The translations under genes and the position numbers were made by a program. Shown piece by piece: positions 23,829-28,660 of a DNA stretch of 64,000 nt; position 1 is the stretch's first letter; each line of letters starts with the position of its first letter. Source of the stretch: Nitrosopumilaceae archaeon (lineage in GTDB: Archaea; Thermoproteota; Nitrososphaeria; Nitrososphaerales; Nitrosopumilaceae); the NCBI GenBank assembly GCA_965203465.1, contig CBDBCR010000003.1:704001-768000 (forward strand), written 5' to 3'. Below the pieces are notes generated by a model, which had not been told where the DNA came from, searched no databases, and saw only the letters and a program-made list of their open reading frames with translations.

Positions 23829-24392
23829 CTAGTCCGCGCGGGCCTGCTCGCGATCGCCGGCGCGCGCCAGCGATATCCTGTGGTGGTCGGGATCGACGCT
23901 GTAGAACAGCCCGTCCGATCCGCCGATCTCGGACGAAAATGCGCCTATCGGTTTTCTGTAGCGCCCCATGCCCGCCGGGTCGTCCGAAGTAGCCAGATCC
24001 CGGATTGCCGCGTCCACCCCGGCCTGCCCGGAACTGTCCATGCTCTTGTACTGGCGCACGAACGCAGGCTCCCTCGCGACGAACCAGCCGGCCGTCGCGC
24101 CTTTCAGCCGCGCGGGGTCGCGGCGCAGTTCCAAGTGGCCCTCGTAGCCCTTCTTCAAGTCCTCGATCAGATCGTCTGCGTAGGTGTACACCACCTTGGG
24201 GTCGGAATTGTGGGACGCGATGGCGTCGAGCGCCTCCTCTGGGATCAGGCCGTCCTCGTGCAGCCACGCAAGGTACCGCTCAAAGTCCATCCGGCCGGCG
24301 AATTCGGACTTTAGGAAATACCCCCTTATGACTGCCAGCTTGTCCTCCGCAAGGCGCGCGAACGGGCCGGAGGCCTGCCGCGTGTAGGACAT
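23829..24392 (-). CDS. Two-domain protein with a C-terminal RelE/ParE-like toxin domain
   Basis: The C-terminal half (FVRQYKSMD...VDAAIRDLATSDDPAGMG...FSSEIGGSDGLFYSVD...ISLARAGDREQ) has a RelE/ParE-like layout. Confidence 0.55.
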   Translation of the reverse strand: MSYTRQASGPFARLAEDKLAVIRGYFLKSEFAGRMDFERYLAWLHEDGLIPEEALDAIASHNSDPKVVYTYADDLIEDLKKGYEGHLELRRDPARLKGATAGWFVAREPAFVRQYKSMDSSGQAGVDAAIRDLATSDDPAGMGRYRKPIGAFSSEIGGSDGLFYSVDPDHHRISLARAGDREQARAD

Positions 24393-24656
24393 CGGGGCGT
24401 TGGAACGGGCTGTTGATAATATGCGTTGGTTTTCCGCATGATCGCGCGCCGCCGCGAGCGGGCGCCGGCCAGCCGATCCGGCGGCTGGCCGAAACGCGTC
24501 CGGAAAGTCTCGGATTTGAGATCGCGGCAAGGATCCGGATCGGCGCCCGCGAATTTGACGCCAGTCCGCGCCGCAGACCGACTTGTGATCGCAGACGCGC
24601 AGCGGCGTTGGCCCGTGGCGGTCGGAATTAATCCGGCAGACCCTGTATCAAATCTT

Positions 24657-24810
24657 ATCTGGGAGGGGAGCATGGCTCTCCGAGATGGGCCCGAGAGTTG
24701 AACTATTCTTACCCCGCATGAGGGTGACCGGCAGACTAACTCACAACAATAGGCGGACGGGGTACTACCCCACAGAGGGTGAATGGGAGCTTTCCGCTCA
24801 ATCGGGCAAA
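24657..24810 (+). ncRNA. Predicted IS110 bridge RNA (5' hairpin, target-binding loop, donor-binding loop)
   Basis: Two parallel internal loops around TACCC..AGGGTGA hairpins. Arms CTATTCT / CCGGCAGA match the flanking target; ACGGGGT / ATGGGAG match the element ends. Closing stem GCCCGA (24689) / TCGGGC (24802). Confidence 0.75.
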
Positions 24811-24917
24811 TCCACAAATCCAATGGCTTCGAAGGAGGTGACACATTGATCAACATTGGGATAGACGTGCACAAAAAGATGTGCGCGGCGACAATAAAAG
24901 GAAACGGCAAGGATATA

Positions 24918-26066
24918 TAGTATCTTAGATTGACTTTGGGCAAAGATCTAAATAGCGGCACGCCGGGGGGGCCCCATGGCGAGGAAGTTCCTTCCCAAAG
25001 TGACCATGGCCCGCCTGTGCGACATGCATCGGAAGGAAAAAGATCCAAAGGCACAAAGCAGGCTGGTGGTATGCATACAAAGGAAGCAGGGAAAGACCAT
25101 CATGGAAATATCCAAGGGCTTAAACATTCCGCGCAGCACGGTGACCAACTGGATAAGGAACATCGAGAAGAACGGTCTGAACAAGAGATACGACATAAAG
25201 AACAAAGGGGCAGCGTGCAAGCTCACCAAGCGCCAGCTCAAGGCGCTCGAGCGGGATCTGGAAGCTGGGCCCGCGGCGATCGGACTCGGAGCGGGTGCTT
25301 GGACGATACCGCTGATCAGGACGCACATCAAGAAAAAGTTCGGCGTAGAGTACCATGTCCACTCCGTCTGGGATCTGGTGAACCGGCTGGGCTTCGTGTA
25401 CATCAAGCCCCGCCCCCGCGACGCACGCGGGGCGTCTCCGGCAGAAATCAAGGATTTCAAAAAAAAGCTCACAGAACCGTAGCAATCTACGCTGGGCGCG
25501 GGCATCTGGCCGTTTCCTTTGACGAAATGCACGTATCCATGCAGAGCGTGGTCCGGAAAGGATGGTACCGCAAGAAAAGGAGGAAAGGCAAGCGCGCCGA
25601 ACAGGTCAGGGTCGACGTCACGGGCAGGCGGAAAGGCCGGGCCACCCTGCTCGGAGTCGTGGCGGCCGGAGGCCAGAGCTATTTCGAGTTCTGCGACACG
25701 GGCAACGCCAAGAACGTAGAGGCGTTCCTCATGAGGGCCTACAAAAAGCTGGGCAAGCTGCTGATCTACACGGACAACGCCTCGTACCACAGCGAAGCCG
25801 TGTTCCGGAGGCTGTACGAGAGAACCGACGGCGGCATCGTGGCGAGGTTCCTGCCAAAGTACACGCCGGAGCTTGCGCCGATCGAGTCCCAGTGGAGGGA
25901 AGTCAAGCGCTACATCGCCAACCAGTTTTTCGACGACATCGAGCAGACAAAGAGAGAAGTGTTGAAAGCTCTGAGATCCGGCGGCATCAAGATCATAAAG
26001 ATGCACGACTATCTTACGGCCTGATCGTTCGTGCCAAAAATTATCTAAAGTCAATCTAAGATACTA
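24918..26066 (+). mobile_element. IS630-family element with TA target duplication
   Basis: Perfect 20-bp TIR TAGTATCTTAGATTGACTTT at both ends, flanked by TA (24916-17 and 26067-68). Confidence 0.95.
24976..26024 (+). CDS. IS630 transposase (HTH ORF 24976-25482 joined to the DDE ORF by a -1 shift at A8, 25459-25466)
   Basis: HTH/winged-helix ORF A. DDE motifs SFDE, YTDNASYH and LPKYTPELAPIESQW lie in the -1 frame. Slippery site TTC AAA AAA AAG. Confidence 0.9.
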
Positions 26067-27234
26067 TAATAGAACAGACCGAATTCAAGAACAGCAAAAA
26101 AGACATAGAGGCGTTCGCGGCACACGTAAAGAAGACGCACGGCAAGAACGCCAGGGCGGTCTGCGAGGCGACCGGCAATTACTGGATCATGCTGCACGAC
26201 ACGCTGGAGGAGTGCGGCATCGACACGATCTTGGCTCACCCGTCCAAGACCAAGGCCATAGCCGAGGCAAAACTGAAAGACGACAGGGTGGACTCGGAGG
26301 TGCTCGCGGACTTGCTACTCATGGACATGGTTTACGAGTCGTTCGTGCCTGACGAGCGCTACAGGAACCTGCGCAACCTGGCCAGAACCCGGCTCGACAG
26401 GGTCCGCACGGCGACGGAGCAAAAGAACAAGATAACTGCGCTTCTGGCCAAATACGAGCACAAGCTTCCCACAAAGACGAAATTCTCAAAGACCAACTTG
26501 AAGTGGATGCGAACCGTAAGCGTCTCGCCGGTGGACAGGCTGTCGCTGGACTCGTACCTCGACACGCTGCAGCTGATGCAGAAACAGACGGAAACGCTGG
26601 AGCGCGAGATAGCTTCCGAATGCATGGACGACGAGAGGGCAAAGCTCGTCATGACGGTCACCGGAATAGGATACGTTACCGCGCTGACCATAATCGCAGA
26701 GATAGTAGACGTAAAGAGATTCAGGACGGCCGAAAAACTCGTCTCGTACGCGGGCCTTTCTCCGTCCCACCGGAACAGCGGCGAGACCAAGCGCGGCGGC
26801 GGCATAACCAAAAAGGGGTCCGTCTGGTTAAGGAACGCCATGGTGGAGGCGGCCAACGTCGCGGCGCGCTACGACGCTCGAATGCCTTCGACCTACGAGC
26901 GGCTGTCGAAAAGGATAGGCAAAAAGAAAGCGAGGGTGGCCATCGCGCGCCGCCTGACGGAGGTAGTCTGGCACATACTGACCGACATGGCCGAATACCG
27001 GACGCAGGACAAGGATCTAGTGCAGCGAAAGTATAAAGCGGCGGCCAAAGCCCGCCCGCCTGACTGAGCACACACTCGTTTGCAGTGGCCCGTCAATCCG
27101 GGAAGATTTGATATGGGAGAATAGGCCATCCCCCGACCTGACCGCTTACCCGCCGGCGCGACCAAAGTATAAACAGGCGCAGCGGCAGGCCAGCCGTTTG
27201 ACGGCGGAAAGCGCGCTTGCGGGAAAGGCCTGAG

Positions 27235-28660
27235 TTGGCGCCGGAACCGCGCCCCTCGGTCGCCTACATGCAAAGGATGCCCGACGGCCGCCAGAGGGAG
27301 AACGTGGCAAAGCTCCTGCGGTACGGGCTGGCCGTCAACGGCAGAACCGTGGACGAGCTGGGCACGAAGCACCGGGGACGCCCCGCGCAGCAGGCCTGGC
27401 GCTCCAAGCCCGTATGGCACAGAAAGGCGGATCTGGATCAGTGGCTGGGCAGAGAGATGGGGCTGCCCTCCACCTTGTGGGGGCCGGGGCGCAAGTCCAA
27501 CGAGCTGGCGGACATGACTAGCGCGATATTGGACAGGCTGCGAAAGAGCGGCGCGCTGTCAGACTGGAGCGACGGGCGCGCCGACCTGTGCAGGCTGTCG
27601 GATCCGTCCAAGCGGGCGGGCAGGCCGTCTGCCAGCCTCAAGGACTACTGGCCCGAGCCGGAGCCGATGGAGCGCACGGAGCACAACATGCGAAAAACGT
27701 TCACCGCCATAATATCAGAGGGGCGCAGGGACAACACCTACAAGTTCGCCCTGTGCAAGACGCTGCTGGACTACTGCAAGAAAGAGGCCCCCGACGGATC
27801 CGCGCGCAAGAAAGTACGAGTATCTGGCCGGGGAGTTCCTCAGGCACTACTGGCACCAAAAGTACAAGTTCAGGATGAAGCAGGACTTTCACACCAAGCG
27901 GCAGCCCAGGATCATAACCATACTCGAAGAAGTGTTCGGCGACGCGCAGTCGGCAAGTTTCAGGCGCGCGGGCGCCGAGCGCAAGAGGGACGCCAAGCGC
28001 AGGATCCTCGCGGAAGTGTTCGGGCGCGACAGGCAGAAAAAGGGCATGGTGGTGTCCCGGTTCCAGCACGTCAGGCACGGCGGCACGACGGCCAGCGTCA
28101 ACATGTTCTACGACTACGACGACGACCTGCAGGCGATCACCCTCCACCCCGAAGCACACGAGTTCTTGTGCCGCAACCGCGCGCTGCTCACCCGGGCGCT
28201 GCTGGCCGAGTGGGTGCTGTACCTAGAAAGGGTGAACCACGGCCTGCCCAAGCTGGCCGCCAAGATAGACGGGATCAAAAAGAAGGGCTCCCTCAAAAAG
28301 TACAAAGACGTCCTCTACAGGCACGCGAAAAACTGCTTTTACTGCAGAAACAGACTCATGCCCGGCCGCATACACGTGGACCACTTTATCCCGTGGTCGT
28401 ACATGCTCGACGACAGCATGTGGAACCTGGTCCTGGCGTGCCCCGAATGCAACTCGGACAAGAGCAACTCGCTGCCCGGGGACGCGTACCTGCCCGGGCT
28501 CATAGCGCGGAACGAAAGGTGCGCCGGCGTGGACGAGATGCGAAAGTCCCTGCGCCGGCTCGCAGGCGGGACCAAGACCTGGGAGGAGGAGATACGCAGC
28601 CACTACAGCGTATGCGGGGAATGCGGCTTTGGCAGGTGGGTTGCCGGATCCCGTCCGTGA
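27235..28660 (+). pseudogene. HNH endonuclease (McrA/type IV-like), frameshifted near 27810
   Basis: NTYKFALCKTLLD in one frame; YEYLAGEFLRHYWHQ...CFYC...HVDHFIPWS...WNLVLACPECNSDKSN in the next frame. Confidence 0.8.

Follow-up and report, generated by a model that had tools for sequence, protein, structure and literature searches.

The window, a stretch of 64,000 nucleotides from a Nitrosopumilaceae archaeon (assembly GCA_965203465.1, contig CBDBCR010000003.1, positions 704,001 to 768,000 of the forward strand), carries an insertion element at positions 24640-27119 on its + strand. It is very probably an archaeal IS110-family copy that moves by site-specific recombination, catalyzed by a DEDD/serine recombinase under the guidance of a bridge RNA, also called seekRNA. 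Our data support this reading directly through the protein family, a conserved RNA structure, the covariation of four guide arms with the target and the element ends, natural retargeting, and an insertion polymorphism between strains. What is new is the layout of the element, given that the mechanism was described in 2024, that archaeal IS110 recombinases have been published before and that an NCBI model already names the protein an RNA-guided transposase. This layout has the arm order of the IS1111 type and long subterminal repeats, yet its RNA gene lies upstream of the recombinase gene as in the IS110 group.

The bounds of the element were taken from four copies with differing flanks in this genome, plus relatives. 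At the left junction CCGGC (24633-37) and AGA (24638-40) are followed by CCCTG, and at the right junction TATGGG and AGA (27118-20) are followed by ATAGG. The initial annotation gave the junction, arm and inverted-repeat strings exactly at their positions, and it proposed a target and a circular donor joined at an AGA core. The junctions stand, but the relatives reduce the shared core to two letters, AG (24638-39 and 27118-19), which reads CT on the opposite strand and is replaced by TG in the Methanophagales group. Because there are relatives whose right flank begins with C or T, whereas the element always begins with A, we place the start of the element at A24640, and the flank beyond the right core reads AATAGG. 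The left half of the target with the core, CCGGC-AG (24633-24639, + strand), is the same 7 nt left of all four copies and equals the 3' arm of loop 1 in the RNA described below. The core copy AG with the right target half AATAG (27118-27124, + strand) was read at the right junction and has the same letters in one of the other copies.

Just inside the two ends lies a subterminal inverted repeat of 11 bp, TATCAAATCTT at 24647-24657 and its reverse complement AAGATTTGATA at 27103-27113 (both given on the + strand), and the relatives keep such a repeat of 9-15 bp at the equivalent position. The conserved AAA..TTTT block within its left copy might, speculatively, act as an archaeal BRE/TATA promoter element. 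The non-coding regions of the element are 206 nt upstream of the recombinase gene and 52 nt downstream. All readable members share one plan upstream of the gene: a left end of the form ACxxxx, the subterminal repeat, an outer stem, two modules, a GGAGGTGA ribosome-binding site and the start codon. The window copy is 2480 bp long owing to an insert of the IS630 family, and intact copies measure 1330 bp plus one 2-bp core.

The recombinase gene starts with TTG at 24846-48. Its first 24 codons (24846-24917, + strand) include the first catalytic Asp in GIDVHK, and the remainder (26069-27067, + strand) encodes the rest of the DEDD domain and a Transposase_20 domain with the serine motif GLSPSHRNSG. 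Between the two parts lies the IS630-family insert of 1149 bp (24918-26066) with a TA duplication (26067-68; together 24918-26068, + strand), which splits the gene after 24 codons and is missing from the other copies. For the protein searches we used the uninterrupted recombinase of an intact copy, 358 aa counted from the TTG. This protein matches Pfam PF01548 and PF02371 with E values of 1e-25 each, i.e. an N-terminal DEDD RuvC-like domain and a C-terminal Transposase_20 domain, and scores 246.4 bits (cut-off 140) with NCBIfam NF033542, "IS110 family RNA-guided transposase". Against the solved structures it matches IS621 (E 1.4e-16) and ISCro4 (E 1.3e-12), with the GID, EATG, D..VD and SG motifs aligned. 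It thereby has what marks an IS110-family recombinase, a DEDD domain together with a Transposase_20 domain carrying the G..P....SG serine motif. The host genome is archaeal, as the small and large subunit ribosomal RNAs score 1441.8 and 1105.1 bits with archaeal models, the best within their clans. These ribosomal RNA scores, the IS621 homology and the NF033542 match bear out the earlier description of an archaeal IS110 recombinase.

We collected relatives from two sources. A recombinase scan of species genomes gave 45 loci, of which 44 are archaeal by title (Bathyarchaeia, 'Nitrosopumilus sp.' and Nitrososphaera metagenome-assembled genomes (MAGs), and Methanophagales) and one is bacterial, with 27% identity. 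From metagenomes 80 of 148 loci were kept. RNAalifold applied to 13 sequences of four groups returned exactly the four stems of two modules, with 19 pairs of which 11 have compensatory changes. The target-binding module (24695-24742, + strand) is made of stems P2 (24695-99/24738-42), which is 100% paired with double changes in four of its five pairs, and P3 (24711-14/24722-25), 95% paired. In the donor-binding module (24753-24797, + strand), P4 (24753-57/24793-97) is 98.0% paired and P5 (24767-70/24777-80) is 98.3% paired, with double changes in all four pairs. When 30 sequences of the two modules are aligned, standard pairs fill 98.0% of 540 cells vs 85.2 +/- 0.8 in shuffles (0 of 500 reach this value), and 12 of the 18 pairs change on both sides. 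When one strand was slid by 1-3 columns as a control, pairing fell to only 32-44%. The alignment contains 16 G:U cells that would be A.C on the other strand, which places the RNA on the strand of the gene (+). The two-internal-loop structured RNA of the IS110 family is therefore present here as a predicted RNA, by comparison.

Around the modules an outer stem P1 closes the body of the putative bridge RNA (24688-24807, + strand), pairing GCCCGA (24688-93) with TCGGGC (24802-07) in the minimum free energy (MFE) and centroid folds. In relatives P1 was recognized by eye, as GCCTGA/TCAGGC in the Nitrosopumilus-labelled group (N) and as CGGGTGGCCT/AGGCCACCCG in the Bathyarchaeia group (B). The 5' hairpin at 24657-24686 (+ strand), which had already been pointed out, is stable in itself (-14.6 kcal/mol, z -3.10, reached by 2 of 200 shuffles) and is not part of the RNAalifold consensus of the relatives. 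A conserved GA, in columns that vary little or not at all, stands at the end of the hairpin loops of P3 and P5 (24715-21 and 24771-76), just 5' of the 3' strand of each stem, and may be a protein contact. A covariance model built from the 30-sequence alignment, R1, matches only the four element copies in this genome. It has matches in seven of the 41 genomes of the relatives' sample, this one included; among the seven are the four remaining genomes of the genus, each with 1 to 13 matches.

The two internal loops of this RNA contain four segments that resemble the target and the ends of the element. In loop 1, the 5' arm CTATTCT (24703-24709, + strand) is the reverse complement of the core and right flank, AG-AATAG, and the 3' arm CCGGCAG(A), CCGGCAGA (24728-24735, + strand), equals the left flank and core followed by a constant A. 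In loop 2, the 3' arm ATGGGAG (24783-24789, + strand) equals the right end with the core, and the 5' arm CGGGGT (24758-24763, + strand) can pair with the left end ACCCTG (24640-45) with one G:T. The last arm had been described as ACGGGGT at 24757-63; the string is right, but A24757 also belongs to stem P4 and we count the arm from 24758. The same registers recur in the relatives. The 5' arm of loop 1 is the reverse complement of the core and right flank, usually then one spacer base; its 3' arm consists of 5 nt of left flank, the core and a constant A; the 3' arm of loop 2 consists of 5 nt of right end, the core and a constant C; and the 5' arm of loop 2 is the reverse complement of left-end positions 1-6, the core excluded. 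The arms thus cover the two strands of target and joined ends alike and overlap at the core, as in the IS110 family, the 5' arm of loop 2 being an exception in leaving the core uncovered.

Part of this signal can be seen in the window copy alone. We compared its four flank and end sequences with its non-coding region, the right flank and left end as reverse complements, and the longest exact matches are 7 nt for the left flank, 7 for the right flank, 7 for the right end and 5 for the left end. Among 5000 dinucleotide shuffles these values are reached 167, 107, 513 and 3897 times, respectively, and the first three jointly in none. Since the window copy by itself gives no significance for the 5' arm of loop 2, the support for this arm comes from comparison.

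For that comparison we extracted 91 element rows by pattern, 64 of the Bathyarchaeia type, 13 of the Nitrosopumilus type, 10 of the Methanophagales type and the four copies of this genome. Among the 80 metagenome loci, 19 gave no pattern row; the core was found later in seven of them, of which L100, L102 and L112 were read by eye, and 12 were left out. Rows without an arm or a flank (contig end, deletion or pattern miss) were excluded from each count. The statistic is the number of non-core matches on unique arm/site pairs, duplicates being counted once, with the partners shuffled 10000 times. The 3' arm of loop 1 and the left flank match at 219 of 312 positions over 52 pairs, vs 94.5 +/- 8.9 after shuffling (0/10000) and 144.9 +/- 7.7 when the shuffling stays within groups (0/10000). 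For the 5' arm of loop 1 and the right flank, 40 pairs give 154 of 240 matches vs 78.0 +/- 9.3 (0/10000) and, within groups, 129.5 +/- 5.1 (0/10000). This count is conservative, because one spacer base was always removed, which misregisters spacer-free elements such as L079, L093 and L103. The 3' arm of loop 2 and the right end match at 76 of 88 positions over 11 pairs vs 64.7 +/- 3.1 (0/10000). The 5' arm of loop 2 and the left end reach 53 of 90 over 15 pairs, vs 41.4 +/- 2.6 overall (1/10000) and 49.5 +/- 1.6 within groups (400/10000), and the covariation lies at left-end positions 2-6 across groups. Controls with the wrong arm/site partners stay at chance, and the match frequency per position is 0.69-1.0 inside the 7-nt arm and 0.17, i.e. 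chance, at position -8. The proposal that four guide arms match the element's own target and donor is thus upheld over the 91 rows, the 5' arm of loop 2 by comparison only.

Natural retargeting gives the clearest individual cases. The flanks of homologous copies had been named as the place to look for such tracking, and they do track the arms, including two copies from another genome of the same genus that have the same subterminal repeat as the window element and entirely different targets. One of them, L136, sits at CGTAAG-AG-TTTAC and has the arms CGTAAGAG and GTAAACT; the other, L143, sits at TGTATG-AG-GTTAC and has the arms TGTATGAG and GTAACCT. Changes at the element ends are followed as well. 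L100 has the right end ATGGAAG with the arm ATGGAAG and its close relative L102 has ATAGAAG with ATAGAAG, and the left ends ACCCTG, ACGTTA and ACACTA are accompanied by arms that read ACCCCG, TCGTTG and TCACTA, respectively.

One could suppose that the RNA, like a short seekRNA, guides the choice of target only, that the recombinase reads the ends through the subterminal repeats, and that loop 2 is a scaffold whose likeness to the ends is inherited. The subterminal repeats of 9-15 bp are indeed conserved between groups (TAT..AAA..TTTT, including columns without variation), there is much less variation in the ends (11 and 15 unique pairs) than in the targets (52 and 40), the 5' arm of loop 2 is weak, and a short target-only RNA is sufficient for ISEc11 according to Siddiquee et al. 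2024. We nevertheless consider this unlikely. Each of five right-end variants (ATGGGAG, ATAGGAG, ATGGATG, ATGGAAG and ATAGAAG) is matched by the 3' arm of loop 2, those of L100 and L102 included; the left-end variants ACCCTG, ACGTTA, ACACTA, ACGGTA, ACGATA, AAAGTA and ATGGTA are tracked by the 5' arm at positions 2-6; and both loops share their architecture and register.

Several observations weigh against the bridge-RNA reading and have to be set beside this evidence. Not all copies fit their own arms. For example, L026 matches at 4 of 8 positions on the left, L030 at 4 of 8, L039 at 5 of 8, L025 at 2 of 8 on the right, and L037 at 5 of 8 on the left and 3 of 8 on the right, and in our own genome copies D and C (located below) agree with the arm at 3 and 4 of the 5 right-flank positions. 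The misfit copies come mostly from one MAG with many copies, and their flanks fit the arms of another copy or of none; it is possible that they arose from the RNA of sister copies acting in trans, from half-matched insertion or from later rearrangement. The 5' arm of loop 2 is the weakest of the four: permutation within groups reaches the observed value in 400 of 10000 cases, the 5-nt match in the window copy alone is not above chance, and the arm leaves the core and mostly also left-end position 1 unpaired. The folding check that had been suggested for the upstream region turned out negative, as the single-sequence fold is no better than shuffles (z +0.35 for the whole non-coding region, -0.65 for the target module and -0.37 for the donor module). 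For the donor module the MFE fold is not the one obtained by comparison, and in the 30-sequence alignment the sequence of this element stands out of register by 3 columns on the 5' side of P4 and P5. The predicted RNA structure is accordingly drawn from comparison only, and thermodynamic folds are not used as support for it. Rfam 15 gave no match at permissive thresholds in window positions 24300-27400. Finally, the two flanks of the window copy do not stand side by side as an empty site in the other strains represented by contigs of runs X3, X4 and X7. There the left flank runs after 24640 into 308 other letters and then into a diverged repeat of 24235-24438, and the window copy may stand at a strain-specific rearrangement joint. 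The contig depth right of 27224 is none in X3 and X7 and very little in X4, from which we draw no conclusion.

The genome contains four copies of the element. Copy A is the window copy (+ strand), with its recombinase gene broken by the IS630-family insert; copy B (C3:937083-938428) and copy C (C3:326849-328193) have intact open frames of 378 aa and are 98-99% identical to the window copy; and copy D (C1:500536-502988, minus strand) is interrupted by an IS630-family element other than that of copy A. Insertion is specific for site and orientation. All four copies sit at CCGGC-AG in the same orientation relative to the site, with no duplication beyond the core, and the right flanks are AATAG in copies A and B, ACTAG in C and ATCAG in D. 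The target CCGGCAGAATAG occurs unoccupied four times in the genome vs 0.28 expected from composition. It sits at the end of a palindromic repeat of ~83 bp (13 rows in BLAST, nine of them at least 44 nt long), and copies B and C lie within this repeat in opposite orientations. A target in a short palindromic repeat is a likeness to IS621, which targets repetitive extragenic palindromic (REP) sequences. The repeat itself looks like a REP or a miniature inverted-repeat transposable element (MITE) and was seen at G000:C3:936905-937000 and about nine further places, e.g. C1:540480-540562 and C3:851858-851941; some of its copies have a near-copy of CCGGCAGAATAG, inverted, at the other end.

Mobility is indicated by a contig of run X7, which passes from the right end of the element into the flank of C3:202378, a site without an element in this genome; movement has therefore taken place after these strains separated. 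This bears on whether the family in this genome is a decaying immobile relic, with arms that record past specificity only. Two of the four copies are broken by IS630-family inserts, and a fifth relative, 75-78% identical, has lost loop 1 and reads GIYVH for GIDVH. Against such decay stand the two intact copies with their 98-99% identity to the window copy, the target site occupied in another strain and empty here, and the 1 to 13 model matches per genome across the genus, which leave the relic explanation improbable. The fifth relative (L006, G000:C1:168973-170009) was also considered as a second set of guides and rejected, as its target-binding module (loop 1) is missing and it carries GIYVH for GIDVH; this locus is a sister element that has decayed.

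In front of copy B stands a tandem partial copy (G000:C3:936988-937091), made up of the first 96 nt of the element and breaking off exactly behind the CCGGCAG in the 3' arm of loop 1. Most simply, the element would have inserted into the DNA for its own guide, and the duplicated remainder would have been lost afterwards. Guide-encoding DNA can evidently be a target itself, and 7-nt matches of a single arm appear in 2-10% of the dinucleotide shuffles of the non-coding region; the notion that the matches between arms and flanks are by-products of such DNA history (self-insertion or flank capture), with the protein choosing its site without RNA guidance, nonetheless deserves almost no credence, given that the two arms of loop 1 vary together with the target in dozens of independent pairs, at constant places within a conserved structure, one in the sense and one in the antisense orientation, that three arms jointly arise in 0 of 5000 shuffles, and that the homologues IS621, ISEc11 and ISEc21 are experimentally RNA-guided according to the published accounts.

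The bridge-RNA reading would work as follows. The RNA encoded on the + strand between the left end and the recombinase gene would fold into an outer closing stem and two modules of stem, internal loop and stem. By analogy with IS621, ISEc11 and ISEc21, for which RNA guidance has been reported from experiments, we infer that this RNA is produced and bound by the recombinase, that the element is excised as a circle, and that the chemistry is shared. The RNA would bring the joined ends of the excised circle together with the target CCGGC-AG-AATAG for strand exchange at the AG/CT core. The predicted circle junction is ATGGG-AG-ACCCTG, in fuller form ...GATATGGG-AG-ACCCTGTATC..., and no joint of right end to left end was found among the contig joints of the runs, in which contigs drop rare forms. 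The target sequence that we propose for the recombinase of an intact copy and its RNA is CCGGCAGAATAGG. With the IS630-family insert in its gene, the window copy is unable to produce a recombinase of its own, but it keeps an intact RNA gene and both ends, and the two intact copies could therefore move it in trans.

Compared with IS621 and ISCro4 (Durrant et al. 2024, Hiraizumi et al. 2024), the element has a homologous recombinase, an RNA gene between the left end and the recombinase gene, and two internal loops with two arms each that pair with opposite strands on either side of a 2-nt core. The core is the CT reported for IS621 when our element is read on the other strand. It differs in its reversed arm order, in subterminal repeats of 11 bp rather than 2-3 bp, in the absence of the core from the 5' arm of loop 2, in the outer stem that closes both modules, and in low protein identity. 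The inverted arm order had been pointed out in the initial annotation; this agrees with the IS621 paper and the order here equals that published for the IS1111 family. On the opposite strand loop 1 resembles that of IS621, with CT as the core; what differs is therefore which way the gene cassette points with respect to the recombination site.

According to Siddiquee et al. 2024, the arm order is reversed between IS1111-type and IS110-type seekRNAs, and the IS1111 elements are marked by subterminal repeats and a downstream non-coding region, with few exceptions. Durrant et al. 2024 state that the RNA location closely predicts the split between IS110 and IS1111, a downstream position being characteristic of IS1111, and give 7-17 bp for the IS1111 repeats. 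The 11-bp repeats of the window element fall in this range, and in its predicted RNA the top-strand match lies 5' of the bottom-strand match, as described for the IS1111 seekRNA elements ISEc11, ISPa11 and ISKpn4 (Siddiquee et al. 2024); its RNA gene lies upstream of the recombinase gene, unlike the downstream RNA genes of these elements. ISEc21, an IS110-type seekRNA element, shares the upstream non-coding region and a recombinase of the same length, 358 aa, but has the opposite arm order, and the IS110 type is described in that source without long subterminal repeats. The element hence shows the upstream RNA of the IS110 (IS621-like) group without its arm order and without its absent or very short (2-3 bp) repeats, and it shows the 7-17 bp repeats and arm order of the IS1111 group without a downstream RNA gene. 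Both the upstream non-coding region and the 11-bp subterminal repeats, whose combination had drawn attention at the outset, are real, and the published accounts list the combination only as a rare exception. By the descriptions in Siddiquee et al. 2024, to which our comparison is confined, ISMtsp17 is an IS1111 relative with an upstream non-coding region, and ISHvo10 (from an archaeon) and ISAcp5 are IS1111 relatives with long non-coding regions on both sides.

Archaea are not new to this family. Siddiquee et al. 2024 mention that IS1111-family insertion sequences are abundant in archaea, Vaysset et al. report 662 archaeal IS110 recombinases in 2,835 genomes, and a preprint of 2026 uses 86 models to predict the guides of 32,190 bridge RNAs. 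Siddiquee et al. 2024 also suggest that end recognition differs in IS1111 elements, in connection with the short target-only RNA that is sufficient for ISEc11. In open-access papers and bioRxiv we found, beyond the cited papers, neither a study of an archaeal bridge RNA nor an IS1111-type element with an upstream RNA gene.

We tentatively suggest that the element represents a third, undescribed layout of the IS110 family, present in at least three archaeal lineages (Nitrosopumilus/Nitrososphaera, Bathyarchaeia and Methanophagales, by record labels), in which the RNA module has moved upstream while the IS1111 polarity, the long repeats and the AG/CT core were kept; we regard this as possible rather than probable. 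If it is true, the position and the polarity of the RNA module would be separable characters in the evolution of the family. The two characters that split the family, the place of the RNA gene and the arm order, are in any case combined differently here, which bears on the evolutionary movement of the RNA module. The element also provides a documented archaeal case of dozens of natural retargeting events, with both target arms changing with the site, and intact copies with a readable target code of 14 nt and donor code of 13 nt. It would be, if the reading holds, a naturally retargeting and currently mobile RNA-guided recombinase native to archaea. We know of no genetic tools for these archaea.

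The nearest bacterial relative that we found, on a Rhizobium gallicum plasmid (NZ_CP092346.1; L053/L148-L150; 37.8% identity), has three copies with readable ends and an AG core. Its non-coding regions are roughly 150 nt upstream and 300 nt downstream of the gene. The downstream region contains a segment that tracks the left flank and core in the three copies (AGGGAG, GAGGAG and AAGGAG) and a segment equal to the right end (ATTGGAG), and the guide region of this element thus seems to lie downstream of the gene. This hints that the RNA module changed its place inside a lineage resembling IS1111, which the Rhizobium gallicum element would fit. R1 matches are weak in the Natronococcus, Bradyrhizobium and Rhizobium relatives (E 0.064 to 0.94, with 0.064 for Rhizobium gallicum), and a search for their ends, made by eye and with a scan for 9-mer inverted repeats, gave nothing usable.

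The IS630-family insert in the window copy consists of two frames, the first of which, a helix-turn-helix part, scores 83.3 bits with NCBIfam NF033545, the second open reading frame having no family match. The contigs of all four sequencing runs join 24913 to 26065, skipping 1151 bp, and hence lack the insert. The genome contains about seven related copies. In a contig of another strain from run X3, with a loose end at window position 24915, the same IS630-family element follows directly after ...CTTCCATGACCGGCAGA; we conclude that it sits there in the TA of a CCGGCAGAATAG site, in the palindromic repeat that is used by the IS110 element. Contigs of runs X3 and X4, which are labelled as marine and sponge metagenomes, carry the left flank of the window copy with 3 and 6 differing letters over 640 nt, and close strains of this archaeon therefore occur in such samples.

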